Assembly: GCA_026026165.1 (NCBI GenBank)
Contig: JAPEUD010000006.1
Location: forward strand, 372,001-436,000
Length of the DNA stretch: 64,000 nt
Origin: Sarea resinae
Lineage: Eukaryota
Reading direction: 5' to 3'
Notes under the pieces: model-generated
The model's input: the letters and a program-made list of their open reading frames with translations, nothing else
Told to the model about the DNA's origin: nothing
Databases searched by the model: none
In this document: piece by piece, positions 23,766-40,032 of the stretch
Numbering within the stretch: the first letter of the stretch is position 1
Layout: each line of letters begins with the position of its first letter
Program-made: the position numbers and the translations under genes

Positions 23766-26700
23766 TCAGTTCCCGGCCCCGCCACCTCGGGCTCTCTTCC
23801 CCGCACTAGCTCCGTCGACGGCATCGGACCCATCCTCTCGAGGACGCTTGCTTCCCTGGCCCGGAACAAATTGTCTCGCGCCTGCATTCAGACTCCCACG
23901 TGGACTGGACTGTTGCGGGCTCTGATTGGGATGCATGCCACTAGTCTGAATGCCCTGTTGTCCCCCTCGTCCAGGTTGGCCACCGCCTCGCCCACCTCGT
24001 CCGCCCCTGGGAAGACCAGACTGGTGACCTCCACGCTGTCCTTGGGGTAGCTGAGATGGTTGCTGCTGAGCTTGGTTCTGGTTCTGGCCCTGAGGACCTC
24101 CTCCTCGACCACCACGGCCTCTACCTGCTGGAGCGCCCACGCGCGGGATGCCCGACTGCTGTTGCATTAAACCGCGTAAAGCTGTTGGCCCAGTCCCCGC
24201 ATTATGACCTTGTGGCGGTTTGGCGGGGAGGCCTGAGCTGGTTTGTGGCTGCTGAGCCTGCTGCATTTGTGGTTGCGGCTGCGCTGGAGAATTAGGCAAC
24301 GCTTGGGGTAGCTGCGTCTGAGCGGGTGAAGCGCTCGGTGGGACATCTTGTTTCTGCTGTGGCTGAGCGGAGGCTTGTCCGGGAGTCAAAGGGCGAGGTG
24401 CCTGCGCTTGGGTCCCTTGCATGGGTGCAGCCGCCTGTTGCGGAGATGGGAAATGCTGCTGGGGCCCTGGAGTCGGTTGGCCAAACACCCCTCGTTGGAC
24501 CGCTGGAGCTGCACTCGGTTTACCGAATGAAGGCGCACCATTGGCGGATCCTTGATGCGCGGCGTTCGCGGCTTGATTCGGAGCAACAACGGCTGGAGGA
24601 GGTCTCGCGTCCTTTGCAATAGCCCAGACTTCCACAACGGCTCTCTGAGGTGTCTCGATTGCGGCCTTTTCAACTATCTCAACCTTAAACAGCGCGTTTC
24701 GGGCTTTCGTCTCCGCCATGCTTATTTTCACAGAGGATCGTTTCCCTTCCATGGCTACCGCCTGAGCCCTCATGGTTTCCGCTTTATTCCGAGCTTCCTC
24801 GAGCTTCTTCTCGCTTAATATCTCCTGCTCTTCCTTGCTCTTTGCAAGTTCCTGCTCCATTGCCGCTTTTTGTTCCTCTCTGGCCTTCGCGATCAGGGAT
24901 TCTTTCTCCTGCTGGAGCTTGGCTTGTAAGTTTCTGACAACCATCTGCTTTACGGTAGGATTATTCGCAACCAGGTCTTTGACCTCGCTCTCGGAAGGAG
25001 ACCACACTTTTGGAGCCTTATCGGCCTGGTCTGCCTTCATGTCCGCGGCCGGAGCTTCTGAGCCATCTTGACTCTTCACTTTTTGGTCTTGCTGACTCTG
25101 CTTGAGCTGCTCAAATCTTGATTCTTCCTCTTGCTTTAGCCTCTCCAGATCTTCAGTGTGCTGTACTCTCAGCCTCTCAAGTTCTTCAGTATGCTGTGTT
25201 CTCAACCGCTCTATCTCTTCTTGATGTTCGGCTGTCATTTTCGCGATTGTATCCCCATGCTCGGTTGTCAGCGTTTCACGGATTTGGTCCTTTCCTTCCG
25301 TAAGCTTTTTAGATAGCTGGGTTTTCATGCGATCGGCACGTTGCTTGAATTGCTCCTCTGCTCGATGGACCCGCGCATCATAGTCCGCTTTGAGCTCTGC
25401 CTTCATTGTTTCTACTTGTTCAGCGATCTGCTCTGCGACAGGTTTTGATCCGTTCTCAGTTTGCGCATCAGCGATAGAGGCACTGATAGATGCGTTGGCT
25501 TTCAGTGTTTCGACCTCCTGTTGCGCATTTACAAGATCCTCTTGGAGTTTTTCAAGCTGATCAGATGGTATCGCTTCTTCAGAAGCTTGAGCCTGTTTCT
25601 GTGCTTGGGAGTTGAGATGGCTGATCTGAAGATTTGCATCTTCTAGATTCTGCTCAAGCTCGCTCTAAGTCCAGATTAGTACCTCTTGGCGCGCTTCTCA
25701 TGATAAGACACTTACGATTCGTTGCTCGAGCTCATCGACGCGTGCCTGCAAGGACGCCGCTTGGCCTCTCATTTCCTCTGCGCGAGCAGACTCCTCATTA
25801 GCTTTGTGTTCCGCTGCTTCAACTCTTCCTTCCAACTCTTTCCGCTCCTCCGGAAGGCCAGCTACAGCTTCATCGATCTGGCCCTCTTCGGCAACATCCT
25901 CCACAGATGCATGCCTTGGTTGTTGTGAAGAGGGGACCGCGTGAGAGGTGGCTTCATCTCTGGCTGCTTTCGTCGCTTCGAGTTCCGTCCTCAACTCAAC
26001 GATGTCCTTTTCCAACTGCTCTTTCGCAGCCAGAGCCGCATCACATTCGGCAGCCTTCGCATTTAGTTGGCCTGTTTGCTCCCTAGCCTTCGCCTTCGCT
26101 TGTCGGATAAAGCTTTCCTTCTGTGCGCTCCATCGATTGGCCGCATTAGTCGCCTCTTCCTGAACCTGCTGAATTTTCTCCTGGATGCTATTGACTTCTT
26201 CTTGCAATGGCTGCCTAGAGGCAAGGAGTTCATCACGTTCGGTCTGTAGGCTCGTGATCTTCTCTTTCAGAGCCTCTAATTCTGCGGGATCGACGCGATC
26301 ATACTTTTGTAGGATATTCTGCGTCCGCTGTTGCCAGTGATCACGGTCTTCTTGAAGTAGCTTGAATTCTCCGACCTGAGTCTCCTTTTCATTCTCAAGT
26401 TCTCGCACCTTCGTCCGCAATGGCTCAATCTGCTGGAAAAGTTCAGCAGCTTGTTTCGACTTTTCTGCCAGCTGTGCTTGAGCCACCCGGGCCTCATTGC
26501 GCAGCGTGATGCTACTCTCACGGAAGAGGTTGAGCTCATTGATGGTATCCATCAACTTGCTGTGGCTCATCGAATTGGTTTCCTGGTCCATTTGTGCCCG
26601 GCGCTCTTGGTCGAGTTTCAGACGGGTTTCGTCAAGTTGAGACCGCGTATGGTCGAGTTGCTGGCGTAGTCGCTTGCTCTCTTGGACAGACAGCTCATAC

Positions 26701-29700
26701 TGAACATCCACAATCTCTTTCTCGCGACGCAAGTATTTGATCACTTCTTGGATGTTTTCGAGCTCCGAGCCAGGAGTGACGTTAGATTCTTCGTTTTCTC
26801 CCAGCGAAGCACGGTTCTGCTGAAGAGCTGATATTTGGCTTGTAACACTCTCGAGCTGTTGATGCAGCAATTTGTTTTGAGCATTGATATCCTCACGTCT
26901 GGTCTTGAGTTCAGATAGCTCTCTTTCGTAGTGACTCCTCGTCTCCGCCCAGCTCTCCTCGCTCTGAGAAAGCGTGGCTCTGGCTGCCTCCGCGTCCGTC
27001 CTCAGCGCGACGACTTCCGTCTTGAGCTCATTGTATTCGCCGCGCACTTTCTGAAGAGCCTTGGCTGCTTCAGCGTGCTTGACCAGCTCATTCTCGTAGT
27101 TTTGTTGTGCCCGCTGTGCGATCTCCGCCTGAGCTTTGAGGTCCTCCTGGTGGAATTGCGCAGCCGCAGCGTTGCGTTCGGATTCGTCCTTCACCCTAGC
27201 CAGGTCTGCTTCAAATTGTGCATGTTGCTCTTCGACCTTTCGAGCCTGTTCGGCCTGCTCTGATCGCAGGGTGTTGAGCTCAGTGTTCGAATTAGAAAGC
27301 TCGGCTGTGATATCTTCAACTCGTTGTTCGAGGTCGCGAATCTTAGAGTCTTTTTCTTCAAGGAGCCGATCCATTTCTGCTCGGTACTGATCTTGCGTCT
27401 CGTTGAGACTTTGCAGCTCCTCCTCACTTGATTGGCTAATAGCCTTGTACTGCTCAACGGCAGCTTGAGCGTTCTCGAATTCGCCCTTGGCAAGTTCCAG
27501 GTCGCGCTTGAGCTCGGAAACTTCCATTGCGAGTTCTTGCTCTCTCCTCAGAGCGTCCTCTTGGTCCTCTTCCGGCTGGTCAGTGTTCTCGGCATTAGAT
27601 GTTGAACGGGGCGTTGGTCTTGGCTGGAGAACTTGGACTCTCTCCTCGGCGCTTCGTAATTCGATGGTCATTTCGTCAACGCGTGCTTGTAGATGATCAC
27701 GGGTGGTCTTTGCAGCGACTAGCTCTTCACGAATAGAGCCAAGGCTGGCAACCAGATCATCAATCCGCTGTCGGTTTTGATTTGCCTCATATTCTCTTCG
27801 GAGAGCTGCCTTCTTGCCGTCCTCTACCTCGTCGTTTAATTTCCGCTTTGTCGCCTGTAGTTCAGATGCCAAAGCATCGACCCGCTCTTGAAGCCTCCTC
27901 CTCGTTTCCGAAGACGATAGTTCCCGCTCGTTCAGCAGGTTTTGGAGATTCGTATTCAGTCCATTGAGCCGGCTCTTCTCATTGAGCAAAGCCTCGTTGT
28001 CCTCATTCAATCTCTTCTCGATCTTCTTCCACAAGTCTTTCTCCGCCTTGAGATTTGCTGTCTCATTTCGCATGCTCTCCGCCAGCCCTCGTGCTTCCAC
28101 CAACTCTTCGGCCACTTGCTGAGTCTTCAAGTCTTGCTTGGCAGCACTCTCGGCAAGGACCTGGGAACGCTTTTGAAGCTCGCTGTTCTCTGACTGTAGC
28201 ATGCTGAAGTTGGCCTGTAACATGTCGTATCTTTCCCGAGCAAGCGTGACTTGACTAGAATAGCGAGCCGAATCCGCCTGGAGTTCACTCTTATCCTTTG
28301 CAAGCTTATCAATCTGATCTTTGAGGGCTCTGAGATCAGTGGCAGCCTCCTGTCGATAGGCATCGAAATGGCTTTGCAGATCTTTAAGAAGCTTGGCGTA
28401 ATCGCCCAGGTCCTTCGCGCTAGGCGACTCCGCGCTGTGCAGCAAACCGTTTGGAGGAGTGGCTGGGGGGGCACCGCCGTCAATAGACTGGCCGAACATG
28501 GATGCTAGATCAGAGTTGGGTGGTATCTGTCCACGGTGTGAGAGCATGCGTCTAAACATATCGCGTTCCCTAATATAGCTCTGTGATTGGGTGACCATGG
28601 ATTTCATCTCGTCCTTATAGCGTTCCACTCTTGAACGAAGCGTTTCCAACTCTTCTCGCTCTCCCATTCCGGCCTCGGCTGTCTGCTTAGCTCGTGATTC
28701 TTCAGCTTCCATCTTCTCACCAAGCTCTCTGGTGACCCGTAGCAGCTGCACATTCTGGTCCTGCAATTCGCGGATGTTCCTGAAAACGGTCAAACGTTGG
28801 CTGATGAATCTATCAGTATCCGTCATTCCTTCAAGTGCGTCTTCGTCAGCCTCGCCGCGAGCGATGCGTTCCAATTGCATTTGCTCGGCAGCACTGAGAG
28901 CGGTAAATCCTTCATCGTGGGAGTGGACTTCCAGAAGGAGAAGTTTGATCTGTGCGCTAAGATCACGCAACTGTTGTCGTAGAATATCACCTTCTCTTGT
29001 CAAACCTTCCACCTGGCCTTCCCACCTCCTAGATTCCTTCTTTGCTTCGTCCCGCTCTTTCCCAACCTCGTCCAAGTATGAGGATAATTCGGCCACTTCT
29101 CCCTGGAGCTGGTCATGCTCGGCGTGAAGTTCTTCGATTTCGGGTTGTTTTAGTTCAAGATCCTGGATCATCTCATCAATAGTAGCACTGAGCTTCTCAT
29201 TGCGACGACGTTCCATGTCAAGTTCGGCCTTAGCGTTGGAGTACTCCGTGTACATCTGGGTGAAGTTCAAGCCCCCCTTTATCTTTGATGCGCCGGGAGA
29301 AAACGCTGAAGCTCCAAAGCGTGTAGGTGTGCTGGCGCCGTCACCGTTCACACTTCGTCGGGGCGTGCCTGGAAGGGATGCGGCAGTCTGTAGATTCGAG
29401 ACGTCGGCTTCTAATCTTTCGATCTGAACCTCTAGCTCGATAATCCTCTGCTCGGCCGCTTCCTTCTCTGATCTCTCGGTTTCAGCCTCGGCGCGAATCT
29501 TGCCGATCTCGTCTGCTGCATCTTCCTTGGCTTGCTCCAAAGCATTTTGCAATTCCTGCATTCGTTCCCTCGCGGTAGTTGCAGCATTCTTCTGAAGCTC
29601 GGCAAGACGATTTGCACTGTCAAGCTCGACCTTGAATCCTTCCTCACTCCTGGCGGCTTCCTCCTGCAATCTCTGGATCTTGGCGAAGGCATCGTCCGCC

Positions 29701-30557
29701 TTCTGTCCCACTTCCTCGAGTCGTTTGCGCAAGGTCGTCTCGGTACGCTTCAATGACTCGACGGAAGAATTACTCTCCTCATTGAGACGCTGCAGCTCGG
29801 CGATTCGAGCGCCCTTCTCCTTGCGATATTTGAGATATTCGGCCGACTTCGTCTTTAGTTCTGACTCGAACCATTCATTGTTCTTTTTTAGGAGCTCGAT
29901 CTCTTGTTGTAAGCTCTGTTCGCGGAATTTCGAAGTCGTGGAGGATGAACTGGCCGTCTGTAGAGATTGTTCCAAATTGGATAATTCCCGGCGTAGCTCA
30001 ATGGTCTTCTGATGTTCGCTCGACAACTCATCCGCGAGTCTGTCATAGGCAGTAGACTTTGATTCCAGTAGAGACAGGGTGTCGCGATTTGAGGATTCAA
30101 GAGACGATATTCGAGACTTCAGTGCTTCGACCTCAGAGGTAGATGTGGAGGCCGAGGATTTCAGATTTTGGAGTTCCGACTCGAGTGCCGATCGCGCATT
30201 CTCTGTACATGACAGATGTCAGCCTATGACAAGCCATCGCCATCTCGCCTTCAGAGAGCTCCTACCTTGCTCCTTTAGCTTTCCCCTCACGTCTGAAACC
30301 TCCTTCAGACTCTTATCAACTGTAGACTTGAGCGCACGGTTCTTGGTCTCTCCACTTCGAACCGCATTCTCCAATTCGACGTCTGTCCGTAATTTCTCTG
30401 ATCTAAGCTCCTCATGTTCTCGGGCCTTGGAGGCGACGCTTTCGAGGAAAGACTTCACGAGCTCAGTCGTAGGTGCATCAATTAGAGCGGACAGCGTCGT
30501 TTCTGGCACGGAGCAGTAAGACGAAAGAAATGGCACATCAACAGTCGCGGCCGCCAT
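23766..30557 (-). CDS. MLP1: Nuclear basket coiled-coil nucleoporin Mlp1/Tpr (3 exons: ~30557-30266, 30202-25716, 25664-23766)
   Basis: More than 2000 aa of coiled coil with Tpr/Mlp-type segments (QLRDLSAQIKLLL, ISQRLTVFRNIRELQDQN, AQQNYENELVKHAEAA, ELNLFRESSITLRNE, WQQRTQNILQKYDRVDP). Q/G/RGG-rich tail with a basic NLS-like end. GT-AG introns join the three ORF-track pieces. Confidence 0.93.
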
Positions 30558-30918
30558 GATTGCTGACGATCGGTAGTCGAGTATGCTGTTGTTGAGTGTT
30601 GGCGAGAGCTATGCCAGAGAGAGGATCGTCCTCTCGTCCCGCAATTGAGCTTCCCTCAGCGCGTCACGGACCCTAGGGCGTGCGCAAACGTGAGAAGTGA
30701 ATACTCCTCAGTCCGGTGAAGTTCAACTATGACATCTTCACGAAAGTCGAGAGGTCATTGGGAAGGCTGGCGTGGTGAGCCCTTGATGAGTCCGATGAAT
30801 GAAAGCGATTGTTTCTAGTGTTTCTCTGACGGCTTCAATGCTTGTTTGTCTCGGGCCGTCTGTGCTCGCTACACTGCACACATGGCACCCTTAGCTTACC
30901 GAAGCCATCCTCTGAGGC

Positions 30919-30927
30919 TCCAGCTTA
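30919..30927 (+). repeat. Left target-site duplication TCCAGCTTA
   Basis: Identical 9-mer immediately outside both TIRs. If the TIR is extended by the A/T pair, the TSD reads as the 7-mer CCAGCTT. Confidence 0.85.
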
Positions 30928-30948
30928 TTGCCTCAGTATACTCAGACC
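30928..30948 (+). repeat. Left terminal inverted repeat
   Basis: Reverse complement of 38851-38871 with one mismatch. Confidence 0.9.
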
Positions 30949-31199
30949 TCGCTTGGCGGGTGGTCCGCTGCGCACGGACCACTATTGCCTAAATAGGCAA
31001 TCCACCAGCCAGAGGTCTGAGGCAATTTCTCTAATTTTCTATGTCAGCAGCGGCTAATTTGTATAGAGTCAGCGATTATTAGCAAGCATTAATTTCAAAC
31101 TATAAGATATCTGCAACTACAACGCCTATAGCAGTAATAGCTATATTATCTGAAAGCTACACTTCTATTCTATAATTAATTACTATATCTGCTTCTAGG

Positions 31200-33900
31200 A
31201 CTAATCCTAATGTGCAGAGGAAGCGCTAGCAGACAACGACTATTTCTGCACTAATATCTGCGCTAACCACGCTACAGACATTCTCTTCTGCATTGCTAAC
31301 CCTTATATTAGCGCTGTTAGCATCAAATACTAATTAGTCTCTGCTAGAAGCGTTAGCAGATAAGGTTATACCTAGCAGAATAAGTGCAGAGGCTAAGCTC
31401 TACTACATTATTGCTAAGTTATAGGAGTAGCAAGTAACGCCTTTAACTCTTATAACGTTCTAGCTAGAACATATAAAGGATAATTAAAACTTCTGCTAAG
31501 CTAAGCAAAGGAAAGACCTTATTAGATTAGTCCTTAGATTTAATAATATCAACAATCTTCTGTTAGAAGCAGACAAAGGCCTAGCTGTAGTAATAGACAG
31601 CAGTATTAGCCTTATCTGCAGCGAATTAAACTAGCTACAGAATCGTTGTCAGCTGTTTAGCTAATACAGCAAAGACTTAGACTTTAAGACACTTAATATA
31701 ACTCGCTCTACAGGCAACATCTTAGAGATAGCGCCTATGTTGTCACAACTAATTAGCAGTGCAGCTGAATCGCAGTATGCAGCGAAACATTAGCAGAGGA
31801 CCTATTTAGCAGACGCTAGACGACTTGTTATAACAGCATCTATGTTCTGTCTTAGCTACGCTAAATTGTTAATGAATTGCTTTGCCTGCCTACTAGGATT
31901 ATATCTATAAGACTCTAGGTTAACACAGCGTGCGCTAAGCACGCTCTATAGCCTAGGTCTAGTAGATAGATATCGTATAATAGACATGTAGAAACAGCAG
32001 ATATTAGATTAGAGCAAGGAATGTGTCCCCTAAACGCTACTATTAGCTAGGGCTAACTAAACAAAGGCAGATATCTGCTTAGCCGCGCAGACGTAGGACT
32101 ACACTATTATATATAACAACTTTAAATAGCACGCAAAAACACAGCATTAAACAGTTAGTTATACTAGAACGCTCTACTTATACACTACTAGAAAACTCCT
32201 ACACAGACAATGTTTACTAAGCAGAGGACTAACGCAGGACATGTTCTACTCTAATGTTTGTGCTAATGTAATGACTCTTCTAGAAGCAGACAGAAATCAA
32301 GTCGATAAAACGCAGGCGCAGATATTAACGCATTTAGTTGCTAGTGCTATTTGCACAGCATGTCTAGACGTTGTTAATGCTATATTCGCAGCAGATATTA
32401 ATGCTTTCCTGCAAATGCCAGCTGTTAACGTTCTTCTGCCCTTGCAAATAGAGTATATAACCCTTAGACTAATCACTAAATCTAAGGGCTCTGTAGCAGG
32501 CACATATTAGGTGTTAGATAACATCTTTGCTAGCTAACTAGAGAAGGATACAGTCGACTTTAAAAACAAGTTAGTGTTAGTATTTAGTGACTAGAAAACA
32601 ACAGCGCTAATCTGCTCTTATTAGCTTAAGCGATTAGAGGTAGCAGATATATATAATCGACTTAATTAGATATTATCAGTACCTAGCCTCTTTTACTTGC
32701 GGATAAACCTGCTGGCATTGATTGTTAGATCGCACTACAGCAGACAGAGCAGTCTCAACTAATACTCGACGTTATATTCGCATATAAATTACCTTAGTTG
32801 TCAGAATATACCTGCAGATAAAGCGCTGTTTCACTACTAGTAAGAGCTTGTTCAACATAGCTTTCAGGCTAGAATAGTTGCACTATTTATATCATAACTG
32901 TCTGTTTTATATAGACGACAAAGTAAAGGCTAACTAGATAAGATGCTCTGCAAAATGACTCCTGCAAACTTTCTTGCTTAGGTAGAGAATATCTGCAAAA
33001 CTATCTTCTTTGCTGCTAGCTATTAGGAGTTAGCTTAATATAAGAAGGATATACATAGTAGAGATAGAGACATAGTAGGTGCTAGTCGAAAGCAGAATTA
33101 TAAGCAGCAGCATCTCCTGCATGATTCTAAGTATTTCAATCACATTTGCTTTCTGCACTATATAGAAACATACTTGACCTTAAGGCATGCTATTAAATTC
33201 GCTGATATTAGTTTGCTCTGCCGCGCGATTACCTACAGCTGTCTGTATTTCAGCAGAAGTGGTTCGCATAACTATTTGTAAGAGATAATCTGATTTTAGC
33301 AGCTAATATTAACGCTAACGTGTGATCTATGTCTGTAAGAGGCTATACTTGCAAATAGTCTTATCAGCAACTACAACAAACTAGGTGCCTTTATAGAAGT
33401 CGATTAGATAAACAAGCTGTTAAATCTAGAATTAAAGACTATCTTACAGACTAAGGGCAATTCAACGTTTGATATAACAGCTTTATTTAAATAGTTAGTG
33501 CTGCTAACTAGCTATCTTGCTCTGCTTTGTGCTGAGTTTAAGTTTGTATTTAGCGAGCAGACAAACACTTCTTATACTAACAAATCTGCTGCTGCAGATA
33601 TTAGGAGTCTTGCAGATATCATTGCCTAAGACTCTATAATCCGCTGCAAGGATAGGATGTCTGCATATATAGCTCTAGGATTGTTGCAATTAGGTGTTAT
33701 ACAACTAGCTTAGAAGAGGCTGCCTACGCTTGCTAGCAGATATATAGATCTAGATAAGGAGGGTATTTCTAATATAGACTAACAGATAGTAGAGGCGTTA
33801 GTAGGCCTTAATATAAGTATATCTTAGCGGCTTTATTGTGATTTGTATAATAGCTGACTTTATTGTAGGCACTAGATACCTGATTAGTATAGCAGACAAA
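31200..33900 (+). pseudogene. DUF6589-like (Academ-type DDE) transposase pseudogene; boundaries approximate
   Basis: One frame (that of ORF 32241-32510) reads YNNFK* (32112; YDNFEQ after reversing C>T/G>A), VFSD*KTTALIC (32580; VFGDQKT...R), PSLFYLRIN (32682; PGLFHLRMN), HAIKFADISLL, SGSHNY and FIEVD*INKLLN (33390; D...E..N). No frameshift between these motifs. Confidence 0.75.
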
Positions 33901-34299
33901 CGCACGATTATACTACTTCCTAGTTATATACTAAATCATAATTGCAATTTGATTCTATCTACTATTATATGCCTAACTAGCTAGCTGTCAGCTTAGCTAT
34001 GTCAGACTAACAGCCTATGCAGCGGATAATGTTTAGGATCTTAAGGATATCACTTGCTATACACAACTACCCTGCTCTTAGATCTGTAATGTCTGCTTGT
34101 AAATCAGCTATTAAGTCATTGCTGACAGCGGCTGCAGCAGCAGAAGGTCCTGCAGACGCAGAAGAAGGTGCTGTTACAGCGACAGTATGTCCTGCAGACG
34201 CAGACAAAGCGGCTAGCTAATAAGAAAGACGTTAGCAGGGCTAGGTTTTAGTAAGAGGTGAGTCGCTAGCTGTGTCTTTATCTAGGTCATTATTATTAA

Positions 34300-35440
34300 C
34301 AGCTTCCTTAGTCTTCTGTTGCTAAACAATTCGTCAGCTAACCTAGTCTAATATATATATGCATCGAATATACCTTCTGTAGCCTTTTGCTATTGTCTAA
34401 CGCATTATTCTTACGCTTTTTGCCTTTGTTAAGACGCAAAGAGGTGCAGACAGCCTTCTTAATATGTTAGCTATAGCGGATATTCACTATAACATACCAC
34501 TGCTATAGCAGATATAGCGGATAGACATACTAGAGGAGTATTATTATTATTCGCATTAATCACACACAGTTTTCCAGCCTAGCGACACCCTACGCAACTG
34601 TCTCCTAGCTTAACTATATGCTTCTTAACTTCTTAGCAGTAGACCTTGCAAGGGATGCCTTTTTTAACACATTGTTCGCACTTGTAGGTTAGCTCTATAC
34701 CCTAGTATAGGTCGTTGAATATCAAATCAGCATAGGCATAGGCTTTCTAGCAAGTCTCCTTTAGCCTATTCTAAACAGCGTCTGAACACGTTAGCTAGTC
34801 TAGTTTAGTTAGACGTGCAATAAACTATTGTTTATTATAAAATCAGCATTACGCACAGTTCTCTGCAGCAGCAGATAATTAGGCCGCGGCGGCAGACAGG
34901 CTAGCAGCAGACAGGTTAGCGGCAGACAGGTTAGCAGCAGACAGGTTAGCGGCAGACAGTTAGGCGGCGGCAGACAATTAGGCGATAGCAGCAGACAGCT
35001 TATCTTCGAACAATTTCAAAGCTTTAGCATTGTTATTATCCTCTAAGACAAACCCTAAAGACTAGTCTAACGTATACTCTGCTATCCCTTTACCTTTGTC
35101 CTTTAGCCCTGTATCTAAGTCATCTTTATCTGATGATTTATCTGCTAACCCTTTACCTTTGTCCTTTAGTAGCGCTGTACCTAATTCACCTTTGTTAGAG
35201 AGTTTGTCTGCTGCCGCCCTTTTAGTATATTGTTTAATTTCTGCACGTGGCAGCAGGCGGATTAGGAAGGGATATTCTGACTAATACTTGATTGCAGAGG
35301 CAGCAGACGACTTAGCAGAGGCGGCAGACAAAACAGCAGCAGCAGACAAGACAGCAGCGGCAGCAGATAAGACAGCAGCAGCAGCAGAGACAGCAGCGGC
35401 GGCAGACTCAGCAGCGGCAGCAGACTTAGTCCTAATTAGA
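34300..35440 (-). pseudogene. Third transposon-borne gene relic with a Zn2Cys6-like cluster and low-complexity repeats; boundaries approximate
   Basis: Minus strand 34680-34564 reads CEQC-VKKGIP-C-x17-CVGC-R*AGKL-C. Upstream lie 15-bp tandem repeats (34890-34960), a duplicated KDKGKG-coding segment (~35087, ~35149) and GCA-rich repeats (35300-35430). Confidence 0.55.
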
Positions 35441-35899
35441 AGTCAGTTATTATATCTAATATAATAAAGAAAAGTTTAAGATCAGGTTAGTTAAACAGTT
35501 AAAACTTACATAACTAATGTTAAGGTTTCCTCTCTAATCAGACAAAAGTCATTAGCAGCTGACATACTATAAAGTTGCTAGTAAGAGGTTAGAGTTAGTT
35601 AGAAGTGTCAACTTATACTAGCCTTAAAGCACCTTTAGTACTATTTGCAACGTTCGACAGATATTGCTCTAATACACTGTTCTTAGCGAAGTCATCAGCT
35701 ATAATAATAGCAAGGATAATATAGATATCAGTTATTAATAATTGACAGGCTGTAGCAGAGTTATTAAACGAAAGAGGTGCGATGTTAACAATGTTAATAA
35801 GGTTAACAAGGTGATAAGGTTGATAATATTTGCAGGTCAGCTATATAAAGAAGTGGTTCTTTGTTTGAACAAAGAAATCGCTAGTCAACTATTCACTTA

Positions 35900-38400
35900 A
35901 TTTATTAGGCGTACTCGTTTGCTAGATGCAGAAGTTAATAGCAGGCAGAGGTGAGTATTTATATCTACCTTAGCTAGAGGCTGACGTCTCTTATATAATC
36001 TATTAGGTTTGTCTAACAGAGTGTCAACTTGTAGTATGTGACGCGGATTAATGACAGGTGGCAAATCAGCTAGCTGACTAGATATATCAGATGCAGATAA
36101 TAAGGACAAGTTAGCTACAGCTAGTATTAAGGCCGCGGGTTGCACAGTCAAATCCTCTGCGCATATACAGGCTAACAACGCACTTAATTCAGACTAGCTA
36201 AGATCACTGCTAGCCTATTCTGCATATCTTAGCAACAAACCTACATTATAAATACTAGTCTTCTAAACGTATATCCGCTGTATAACGTCCTCTGATATTG
36301 TATATCCTGCTATAGAGACCTAGGTCATGTCCTTGTACTTTGTCTGCGTCTGCTCTAATATCTACTGCTTAATCTAAACAGCTATATGTTTGTTAGGGTA
36401 GCTAGATCGCGGCGTAATACCTGAGTTCAGCAGTTAAAAGTATAGCTTCCTAGATAAAACTAGCTCTAGGTTGCAGTTCAAACAGCAACGTCTGCGCAGA
36501 ACAGGTTCCTTAGTGTTTTTGTCTGCTAGCTGCTTATTAAACGCCTGCATAAATATTGCCTGCAAGCAGCCTTTCTCCTTGTTTGTAAAATTGTATAGCA
36601 GAAGAGGAAGCTCTACTCGCTGTTTGTATACATCTTTGTGCTTGACTTTCATAGGCTAAGGACCTATTTCAGCTAGTACAGCAATATACAACCTCTCTAG
36701 ACTTAGCTCTTGCATTATCCGCTGTTTAATATCTGCGTTAGCCGCGTTGTCATCTGATAATGCAACAGAGGAGACAGCAGAATCAACACTTATACTGTTA
36801 GAGTCTGCGCTTTTATATGCCTGCTCTTAACTTAATAGACTTAGCTAAGACAAGGAAGTTAATGTCTGCACAGCAGATGTCTGCGTGCTAGATATCTGCG
36901 ATCTTAACTGCTAGCTATTATCACTACCTGCTTGCCTTGCCCTAGTCTGCACTCTAGGACCTTTACACTACTTATTAATAAAGAAAATTGCCTCTCCTTT
37001 CTAACTAGCACCTTGTGCTGCCTGACTAAATCGTTGCTATACTAAGCTTAGAAGGCGATCACAAAAGATGCTAAGATAAACTACCTGCTTAATATCTGCG
37101 ACATCTGCACCCTAGGCAACTGCATCTGAATAGAGCAACACTCTTATTCTTAACTGCAGCTGTAAAAACTCTGCCTATATCTGCTCTTTGTCTTGCTCTG
37201 CAAGGGTAGCGTGGTACACATTAACTGTGTGCATTACTAACTGCGCTAAATATCTGCGGTCCTTTAGCCACTAACAGACCTTGTTGCAGGCTTCTATAAG
37301 CTGCTGTTTACTGTTAATAAATATCGCTGTCTTTAGGATCCGCTGCAGAGTTAGACAGTAACGTCGTTTAGTATAGCTACTATTAGCAGACAGCATAGGC
37401 GTCTTAGATTCTATAGCTAGCGTGGCTGATGCAAGAGATTCTAGCCTAACTGCAGCAGATGTTCTAATGTTTGCAGATATAGTTAGCTAGGACCTAGCTA
37501 TATCTGCAGTGTCCTTAGCACAGCCTTTAATAACAAAGTATAGGCAGTCAAATGACTTCTTATTACTGCAGCAGATATATTCGCAGATAATAGCTAGCTC
37601 TAGTCAATCAATTAAGGTGCAGATCAATTTAACGTCGTTATTAAAGCAAGCAAGCTAGTATACCTCTGCAAAGGTGTTGTTATCTAGTGTTGCAGTGCAA
37701 GCAAACTAGGGCTTGTTTCCTAGAAATCTGCAGAGGATACTAAGCTCAGCATAGGAGCTGCGAAAGAAGGACTAGTTTGAAATTAGATAAACCTTATCTA
37801 GCACTACAAGCGCTATCTGCTCCTGCAATTATATGTCTTTCTATATCCGCTTGAAATTTGTGCTAACTACAAGCTCTAGCGAGATTAGGATGTGTGTATA
37901 TTTGCAATTACAGATATCCTTAAGGAGTTAGTTGTTATTGTTCTAACCTGTTATATAAACAGGCTTTATACCTGTAAGCTCCTTTATCTGCATAGTCTGC
38001 TTATCTCTAATCTTATTTAGCAGAAGAATAACAATAACAATAGCGTTACAGACTAGACATAGAATTGACTGCATAATTATACTCTTGCTAAACAAAGTTT
38101 TAGCAACTAGAAAGAGATCTTTCTTAGTGTATATCAGCTAGCAGAGCGCTTGCAGCTGACCTATCCTTCTGCTATATAGGTATATCGCGCAGATAATTGC
38201 ATTAATCGCTGCAAGCTGTGCCTGTTTATCTGTATAGTAGAGCTCTTAAAGTCTGTCTTACAAGGCCTATATTTGACGCTCTTTATCTGTAGTAAGGTTG
38301 CTGTATGCTATTGCTTCTGCTTACAAACGTTCTTTATCTGCAGAGGGTAGCTGTAGTAGGCAGACATATTTGCCCTAGTTAGAGCGTCTTCTTTAAGGTA
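35900..38400 (-). pseudogene. RecQ-like SF2 helicase pseudogene; boundaries approximate
   Basis: One minus-strand frame reads DLFLVAKTLFSKS (Walker A, ~38104-38081; AKTSFGKS), ILLLNKIRDKQ (motif Ia; PLNKIGDEQ), YTHILISLEL (SPE), VVLDKVYLISN* (DEVH, ~37790), FACTATLD (III), VYHATL, SDAVA*GADVADI (V), *QRFSQAAQG (VI; WQRFGRAARG) and the Zn region GCLQAIF...CCLNCN (ORF 36434-36652, same frame). Confidence 0.88.
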
Positions 38401-38850
38401 TCTAGCAAATATAAGTGATCTAATAAGGAGACTATAGCTTTTTCTAACCTTATATAATTCTCTGAAGTTGTCACAGCTGATATAGTGCAGGCGTTGTTGT
38501 GATATTAAGGTAGAAATAATTGTCTTATAGTAAATCTACTGCTTATTAGTGCAAACAGTTATTTTTACTTTAAGGCATAAGATAATCTAATTAACTGCAC
38601 CTGTTACAATACAATTAGGACTATTTGATAGCCCTATTAAAACTGTATAGATAATTAGATTTCTATAGCTGCAGCAGATATAGTTGTAGATATATGCTAA
38701 TGAACTTGTTTGCTATACAGATGAAAAATCTGGTTTTGCCGCAAATTTTCAGAAAAATTGCCTCAGACCACATTTTCGTGGATTACCCTTTCGGGAATGC
38801 TTAGTCATTCATCCGAACGGGCCGGATGTTAATCCGGATCCACGTGATGT

Positions 38851-38871
38851 GGTCTGAGTCTACTGAGGCAA
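38851..38871 (-). repeat. Right terminal inverted repeat
   Basis: GGTCTGAGTCTACTGAGGCAA, the reverse complement of the left TIR with one mismatch. Confidence 0.9.
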
Positions 38872-38880
38872 TCCAGCTTA
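38872..38880 (+). repeat. Right target-site duplication TCCAGCTTA
   Basis: Identical to 30919-30927. Confidence 0.85.
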
Positions 38881-39150
38881 TCACTCTCTGCTATCGCAAG
38901 CACATCTTGATCATTGTGATCACTGCCACAAGCACCGTCATCTGCGACTCAGAGCATCGTCGCTGGTCGACTCATCAAGTTTCGTTCGGATCTCGCAGGT
39001 CTAGACTGCGGTTCGCTTCTTGCCTGTCTTCGTTCTAAGGTTGCCCGTGTAGAGTCTTGATAATCTTTCATCAACGTCAACGAGCACCCAATTCCACGTT
39101 CTCTTTCATTGCCTGCTTCTCGAGACCTCACCTTACTCCTCGTTGCCATC

Positions 39151-40032
39151 ATGTCGTACCTTCAGAGCCAGCTCGATGCTTTCAAATCCGACCTCACCTC
39201 ATCCTCCTCGAAGATCGCCAACAAGCGCACGCTTGCCGCCGCATCAGGACCCTCCAGAACCACGCCCTCCCCCGCGCCCTCGACCGCCTCAACACCCAGC
39301 AAAAATGACCTCAAACGCAAGCGGCCCGAGGCGCCTGTGATTCCGTTCTCTCAACCTGCAGATACCGGTACCGGCAGACATATCATGACCCAGGTCACCT
39401 ACGCAGTCGAGTACCTCAAATCGAAAGACAAACCGCAGACGCTCAAGGATATATTCCGCTACCTTTCGCTGCACAAGTCCGACGAGCTGAACAGGAACAA
39501 TCTGGGCAAGATCCTACAGCAGCACGATCGCGTGGAGTTTGATCCCGCAGGTGGAGGTGGAGAGGGCGCTTTCAGATTCAGGCCTATCCACAATATCCGC
39601 TCCGAAGACCAACTACTCCGCTTCCTTCAATCGCAGCCTACCGCGCAGGGGCTCTTTGTGCGTGAGCTCAAGGACGGCTGGCCGGGCGCAATTGCGACTA
39701 TTGATGATCTCGAGCGCAGAGGGAAACTACTGGTCATTCGCAACAAGAAAGACGGCGGGGCGAAGATGGTCTGGGCAAACGATCCATCGCTGTCCCAACA
39801 TGTCGACACCGAATTTCAGAACCTCTGGCATAAAATTCCCTTGCCCAAGACGGCGGCCGATTTGATGCAGGAGTTGGAGAAGGCGAACTTGACTCCGACG
39901 AGCAAGAAAGAGGCGGTTATGATACAACCCAAAGAGAAGACCAAGAAGAAGCGGCCAGCAAAGAAGGGTGGGCGCACGACAAATACTCATATGATGGGGG
40001 TTTTGAGAGACTATTCGCATCTGCAGAGATGA
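39151..40032 (+). CDS. TFA2: Transcription initiation factor TFIIE beta subunit
   Basis: Intronless ORF from ATG 39151. Motifs TQVTYAVEYLK, FRPIHNIRSEDQLL, ELKDGWP, EFQNLWHKIPLP and a basic C-terminus RTTNTHM. Confidence 0.92.
   Translation: MSYLQSQLDAFKSDLTSSSSKIANKRTLAAASGPSRTTPSPAPSTASTPSKNDLKRKRPEAPVIPFSQPADTGTGRHIMTQVTYAVEYLKSKDKPQTLKDIFRYLSLHKSDELNRNNLGKILQQHDRVEFDPAGGGGEGAFRFRPIHNIRSEDQLLRFLQSQPTAQGLFVRELKDGWPGAIATIDDLERRGKLLVIRNKKDGGAKMVWANDPSLSQHVDTEFQNLWHKIPLPKTAADLMQELEKANLTPTSKKEAVMIQPKEKTKKKRPAKKGGRTTNTHMMGVLRDYSHLQR

Follow-up and report, generated by a model that had tools for sequence, protein, structure and literature searches.

Ends that pair with themselves under changing sequence in an AcademH-like transposon of Sarea resinae

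Both ends of an AcademH-like transposon in the genome of Sarea resinae can fold back on themselves, and this fold-back is a real, conserved structural feature of a known, little-studied transposon lineage. The element lies in a stretch of 64,000 nucleotides that was analysed as a whole and is called the window here; coordinates given without a locus name are positions in it. Related elements keep the stem while the letters change on both of its sides, a sequence pattern which suggests that the ends are handled as folded single strands and not by plain cut-and-paste. Judging from the comparison of sequences described below, we consider it somewhat probable that this fold-back acts in cis, as a DNA structure, in the transposition of the AcademH-like element.

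The element in the window and its two folded ends

The element, a copy killed by RIP, occupies positions 30928-38871 on the + strand (7,944 bp), and its interior is A+T-rich and RIP-mutated. It is enclosed by a 9-bp target-site duplication (TCCAGCTTA), with the left copy at 30919-30927 and the right copy, of the same letters, at 38872-38880, directly after the last base of the element at 38871. The terminal inverted repeats are split into about 21 bp of outer and about 15 bp of inner repeat around differing sequence. The insertion point is located between the starts of two divergent genes, an MLP1/TPR-like nucleoporin gene as left neighbour (25698-30218, - strand) and a TFIIE-beta gene as right neighbour (39064-40032, + strand), the likely start of the latter being about 280 nt from the right end of the element. 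Directly outside the left duplication stands a pseudo-end-like CTGAGGC (30911-30918), the sole such case in 31 flanks from this genome and within chance.

At the right end, a stem-loop of 97 nt spans 38762-38858. The earlier note had read its outer stem as CTCAGACCACAT (38762-38773) pairing with ATGTGGTCTGAG (38847-38858), and its second stem as CGTGGAT (38777-38783) pairing with ATCCACG (38838-38844); both pairings stand at exactly these coordinates. They are followed by a 13-nt terminal tail on the + strand (38859-38871), which ends in CTGAGGCAA and forms the 3' end of that strand. Folding of 38745-38880 as DNA (136 nt) gives -36.7 kcal/mol with a z of -8.61, a value that none of 200 shuffles reached. 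The predicted fold is a three-way junction composed of the stem and two arms, a long one at 38786-38821 and a short one, CCGGAT/ATCCGG, at 38822-38837. Three inner hairpins had been proposed, two of which are recovered: CCGGAT/ATCCGG with a pair probability of 0.99 and GAATG/CATTC with 0.94, the long arm extending beyond the latter. The third, CATCCG/CGGATG, is excluded (0.00) because it shares bases with CCGGAT/ATCCGG. The left end is built likewise, with an unpaired 13-nt terminal tail beginning TTGCCTCAG (30928-30940, + strand) and a stem of 81 nt with two inner arms, running from CTCAG to CTGAG (30941-31021, + strand); the fold of 30915-31045 has a z of -5.87. When 2,130 segments of 120 nt from the 64 kb are ranked by fold stability, the right end comes first and the left end second, both at only 50-57% G+C.

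Just inside the right stem, TTGC (38758-38761, + strand) completes an inner copy of the terminus that is perfect in the window family and not conserved in others. The terminal CTGAGGCAA and the proximal CTGAG compete in this family for one partner (probabilities 0.17-0.80 versus 0.19-0.82), and therefore the outer five pairs are bistable. A 3' terminus able to pair with the inner copy, together with a T- or Y-shaped fold of similar size in 15 of the 20 end families introduced below, recalls Parvovirus/AAV-like rolling-hairpin replication primed from the folded end. This mode of replication is highly improbable. The inner segment of AAV occurs in two orientations (flip-flop), as the rolling-hairpin mechanism predicts, and none of 94 ends having a relative carries it inverted, so that an AAV-like flip-flop was rejected. 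The inner copy beyond CTGAG is not conserved, and self-priming by the 3' terminus is ruled out as a general feature, since the bases after the inner CTGAG vary between families. The hairpin is moreover subterminal and not terminal, the enzyme is DDE-like and the duplications measure 9 bp.

The family of the window element has two more full-length copies elsewhere in the genome. Across the genome, the terminal pattern gives 39 matches versus 0 for the reversed control pattern; of the 39, six represent a look-alike internal to one family and one more is doubtful. In family B, a motif resembling an end, about 600 bp inside, does not fold (-7 to -9 kcal/mol) and was put down to chance. All 14 elements of this genome with both ends carry the 9-bp duplication (13 at 9/9 and one at 8/9). 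The corresponding duplication reaches at least 8/9 in 10 of 17 metagenomic elements with both ends; the other seven have no matching 9-bp duplication at their innermost termini, and some of these joins may be assembly chimeras or composites. All 18 stretches taken from the Sarea resinae genome appear RIP-mutated or broken. Among the assembled contigs of two DNA sequencing runs, the insertion is occupied in one run, and neither an empty site nor an end-to-end joint was found in them; these are dead copies and uninformative for intermediates. The matches listed include no RNA sequencing run carrying the element, and no relative is present among 211 pattern matches in viral contigs.

Several further observations concern the copies themselves. 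Differences due to RIP between copies of families A, B and C are nearly absent from the terminal 100 nt (in the window, 30928-31027 and 38772-38871), where they affect 1/105, 6/106 and 0/110 C/G sites, versus 17-25% of the interior C/G sites; this sparing may be a general edge effect. The pentamer TCCGC/GCGGA occurs 13 times per kb across a less mutated copy (L042:319-8297), in all three frames of the transposase gene, against 1.9 per kb in the host DNA of the window, and its RIP form reaches 15 per kb in the window copy (30928-38871). The enrichment is also seen in the L047/L048 family and is absent from several other families. One copy of about 19.8 kb (G000:C118:39692-59533, covered by L038-L040) has both ends and an 8/9 duplication and is 12 kb longer than its relatives, and its left flank is the same as that at C11:39727. 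At L046:301-470 (G000:C137), a right end cut before the inner anchor continues into a degenerate left-end fragment, with no duplication seen there.

Pairing and sequence in the ends of related elements

Homologous ends were collected from 80 metagenomic loci chosen by transposase similarity (the best 80 of 178, with 28-48% identity), partly by searches that did not depend on the end motif. A motif-free search for inverted termini with a flanking duplication returned TTACCTCAG-type termini with 9-bp duplications in 8 metagenomic loci. A motif-free fold scan upstream of the gene, applied to 20 loci that lack the strict motif, found an end in 11 and none in 9, the latter having no bearing on self-pairing as they yielded no terminus. 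The scan brought further ends with new stems (e.g., L051, L052 and L099), and in some of its variants the anchor pair itself is switched from A-T to G-C on both sides.

For the analysis of covariation we used 20 end families with one hand-picked natural representative each, six from the genome of Sarea resinae and 14 metagenomic. Each end consists of TT(A/G)CCTCAG-N3-5-CTCAG and then a variable, self-complementary unit of 54-106 nt that is closed by CTGAG. The start of the stem is nearly fixed, lying 13 nt inside the terminus in 86 of 103 distinct ends and 12 nt inside in 15 (101/103 in total). Stem positions 3, 4 and 5 are paired in 20/20, 19/20 and 17/20 families and show 3, 4 and 4 Watson-Crick pair types, respectively. 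Position 1 changes from A-T to G-C on both sides in three families, positions 1-2 being partly fixed by the anchor patterns with which the ends were found. Arms pair better with their own partner than with arms swapped between families (6.5 versus 3.5 of 8 positions and 10.0 versus 5.6 of 16), and in 14-16 of the 20 families the own arm ranks first among all partners; the permutation p of about 1e-5 is optimistic, as the families are related and not independent. A first pass over 17 automatically formed clusters gave the same own-versus-swapped result; three of these clusters were flawed (a nested duplicate, a deletion variant and a mis-set anchor) and were dropped or corrected for the count of 20 families. 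The first pass also left out 14 of 111 motif hits that lack the 3' anchor, six of them chance hits and the rest truncated, interrupted, longer or RIP-damaged ends.

The fold is not equally developed everywhere. A branched top is present in 15 of the 20 families and missing from five, and three families fold weakly; over 150 nt, the folds of L057 and L062 do not surpass those of shuffles (z -0.6 and -0.7). RNAalifold on four right ends from the Sarea resinae genome reports double changes in 6 of 37 pairs, but its covariation term comes out slightly unfavourable (+0.56). The earlier note had claimed that each end pairs with itself in spite of differing sequence, and this is borne out, as homologous ends pair internally with different sequences and with changes on both sides. 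It had also named an absence of self-pairing in homologous ends as the case that would speak against it, and the ends reached through transposase homologues did not bear this out. Its further claim that structure rather than sequence is maintained holds in so far as pairing is kept while letters change; selection would be what keeps it up, and not repeated template switching between the arms, and the branched top belongs to the 15 families only.

Template switching at quasi-palindromes, in replication or gap repair, can mimic compensatory change. The element could move by ordinary double-stranded cut-and-paste, with the inverted CTCAG/CTGAG as transposase-binding sites and the stem as a by-product of template switching that copies arm onto arm. 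The end families agree with this in that only the CTCAG motifs, two direct and one inverted, are invariant among them, and in that some stems are near-perfect, such as the 19 bp in L052. Several features are nevertheless hard to expect of a by-product: the stem is present at both ends and at a fixed distance to the terminus with inner sequence unrelated between families, bulges and internal loops persist between the co-varying helices, and inner arms that pair are found again and again in other letters. On balance, we regard ordinary cut-and-paste with a by-product stem as rather unlikely, and keep to a fold that has a use in transposition.

A non-coding copy of 965 bp (L036/L010) has its own 9-bp duplication and keeps both end folds, its inner arm being different yet paired. 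This copy bears on a role of the structure as RNA, namely as a leader or as an antisense or small-RNA substrate regulating the two genes of the element. Both genes face inward from the ends, and the ends also fold well as RNA, as such regulation would have it. The retention of both folds by a copy without genes speaks against it, as does Rfam, where no family matches either end and one chance-level hit falls in the interior of the element. The mismatches, too, weakly favour the strand antisense to both genes. In 14 of 17 cases the better fold is that of the outward strand, the one with the terminus at its 3' end, and all five non-Watson-Crick pairs at positions 1-5 are G-T if placed on this strand; over 16 stem positions the bias is only 8 versus 5, with RIP as a confounder. 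A regulatory RNA appears improbable to us, and a DNA structure remains the preferred reading.

Another explanation takes the element as a composite in which each end is, or once was, a small mobile unit bounded by inverted termini of its own. A solo end-like unit of 147 bp (L013:1424-1570, in G000:C90) fits this description: it has termini on both sides, its inner arm is longer, and it is flanked by a 6/9 repeat whose three differences are all transitions. Extra end units adjoin the left ends in L063 and L098. The solo unit is a single degenerate case, the inner copy is mostly without terminal bases, and nested insertion could have left the extra units behind; a composite origin is accordingly very improbable. 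As an observation by itself, the L013 unit is a possible old mini-element made from one end.

The encoded enzymes and comparison with known transposons

The window copy contains a broken DUF6589 transposase gene (31179-33836, + strand, E 8e-39) and a broken RecQ-like helicase gene (matched part 36461-38233, - strand, with true limits that may lie further out). The two are convergent, both pointing inward from the ends, and the helicase matches at 48-72%. The less mutated relative L042 has DUF6589 on the + strand and, on the - strand, Helicase_C above the Pfam cut-off and DEAD and RecQ_Zn_bind below it. Among the best 80 of 178 metagenomic loci, 40 have a helicase match, and in 38 of these it follows the transposase downstream, on the other strand; the remaining 40 loci include many short contigs.

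The AlphaFold model of an intact transposase homologue, P0002, built on an alignment of 102 rows, has a pLDDT of 90. Its top fold matches are DDE transposases and integrases, led by the P element (Z 9.9, rmsd 5.8, 287 aligned) and followed by Hermes (8.4), retroviral integrase cores and ISCth4 (8.1, tied with others). Foldseek returned nothing for this model at E <= 0.001, the weak hits being headed by Hermes. In P0002, D172 and E454 are conserved, and a first aspartate stands at the N-terminal strand. According to this model, the fold of Pfam DUF6589 is that of a DDE transposase, with an RNase H-like core interrupted by a large helical insertion. That the fold matches are canonical DDE enzymes is also what ordinary cut-and-paste would lead one to expect. 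The DUF6589 transposase, which we take to be tied to Academ, matches 983 representative proteins at E <= 0.001. A recent preprint places DUF6589 among possible virulence factors, and the parts of it consulted make no link between DUF6589 and Academ (bioRxiv 10.1101/2025.10.24.684071).

The earlier note had assigned the element to AcademH, and the label fits: it is given because of the 9-bp duplication, the RecQ-like helicase and the DDE-like fold, and AcademH is where the element files best. AcademH is reportedly a lineage of the Academ superfamily defined by Kojima in 2020 (Mob DNA 11:15). The element resembles AcademH in its 9-bp duplication, encoded helicase, short inverted termini, DDE-like transposase and low copy number in Ascomycota, AcademH being described with target duplications of 9 or 10 bp (PMC10045372) and as low-copy in Ascomycota (PMC10799480). 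The portions of the literature searched gave no description of self-folding, co-varying ends of Academ elements or of their insertion into their own ends; the defining paper, Repbase or supplements may hold one.

Folded ends are familiar from other transposons. Like the element here, the IS200/IS605 elements (IS608, ISDra2) have subterminal hairpins at both ends, which their transposase recognises on single-stranded DNA, cutting at a set distance from the hairpin (PMC6006769). They use an HUH (Y1) enzyme and hairpins of 20-25 nt, and the sections of the source consulted name no helicase (PMC6006769); the element described here has, in contrast, a DDE-like enzyme, mostly branched units of 54-106 nt, its own helicase and 9-bp duplications, and its DDE-like fold rules out membership in IS200/IS605. 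Helitron2/Helentron elements share with it that they are eukaryotic, encode a helicase and have hairpins at both termini in fungi, but differ in a Rep (HUH)-helicase fusion, asymmetric termini and short hairpins (PMC5148889), and Helitrons in general make no target duplication (PMC4522978). Symmetric termini, the 9-bp duplication and a DUF6589 with RNase H-like fold rule out that the element is a Helitron2/Helentron. Membership in KolobokH was likewise rejected, as its target duplication is TTAA and the duplications here are 9 bp and variable. KolobokH is otherwise similar as a fungal DDE transposon with a RecQ helicase (PMC9587614). Bacterial copy-out/paste-in insertion sequences (IS30, IS256/ISCth4, IS3) also have DDE enzymes; unlike the element here they rely on host replication, and folded ends are not described for them in the parts of the literature searched. 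The junction spacers of ISCth4, 6-8 bp long (PMC7780238), resemble the end-to-end spacings of 7 and 8 nt in L076 and L119, respectively. No circle junction was seen in the sequences of the element examined here.

Insertion into the ends of other copies and a possible role of the fold

Among metagenomic elements with at least one end, 13 of 40 have an end motif within 25 nt of a junction; L072, one of these, may have its motif by chance, and the nested L101 escaped the motif search. Counted by flank, the motif is found in 15 of 57 metagenomic insertion flanks versus 169 of 9,273 background windows of the same loci (1.8%), and the farther flanks contain only 4 terminal motifs in 232 kb. Two assemblies supply the majority of the nested cases, and where a case is seen from one side only the join may be chimeric. 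In three cases, L080, L085 and L103, the element sits inside another end, with an 8/9 duplication consisting of host-end sequence at either side; the duplication belonging to the host element itself is intact in L085 and L103. L119 and L076 lie 8 and 7 nt from another end. Nested insertions are concentrated at the terminal motif and the stem base. No enrichment of this kind is seen in the Sarea resinae genome (1/31 flanks versus 1.9%).

The individual sites in or beside the end of a like element are L080:1092, L085:8255 and 19383, L103:4125 and 15292, L107:10281, L122:10198, L091:14519, L069:225, L063:2475-2586, L098:8759-8844 and L101:9492-9579. L107 looks doubly nested. In L098, an outer leftover end and the far end of the inner element share one duplication, as if they had moved together.

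By analogy with IS30, which inserts beside its own ends (PMC9333248), part of this end-targeting could come from binding sites alone, a point that also agrees with ordinary double-stranded cut-and-paste. Unlike in IS30, most nested cases here are inside the end and not beside it.

If the fold is used in transposition, as we are inclined to think, the following sequence of steps may be proposed. The transposase would bind the CTCAG motifs and nick at the 3' terminus, and the RecQ-like helicase of the element would open about 100 nt of the end. The freed strand, probably the one with the terminus as its 3' end (for which there is a weak hint), would then fold into the stem and leave a fixed single-stranded terminal tail of 12-13 nt. 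Stem and tail together would be what the transposase recognises for strand transfer, and the outcome would be an ordinary staggered 9-bp insertion. The same recognition of ends would lead new copies into or next to the ends of other copies in repeat-rich genomes. Only as a tentative extension do we put forward that AcademH-type elements may be eukaryotic DDE transposons which move via helicase-opened, folded single-stranded ends, are possibly copied out, and have their insertion steered to the ends of other copies.

In practice, the end motif can serve to mark DUF6589 genes for annotation as transposases. The portions of the literature searched connect the AcademH helicase only with how long the target duplication is, and we found no description of its substrate in them; the structure at the two ends, which paired changes preserve, is a concrete candidate for this substrate. 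Ends that are read by their structure are known from HUH enzymes, and for a eukaryotic DDE transposase this would, if true, be a new way of end handling, combining DDE strand transfer with the recognition of ends by their structure that HUH transposons show.
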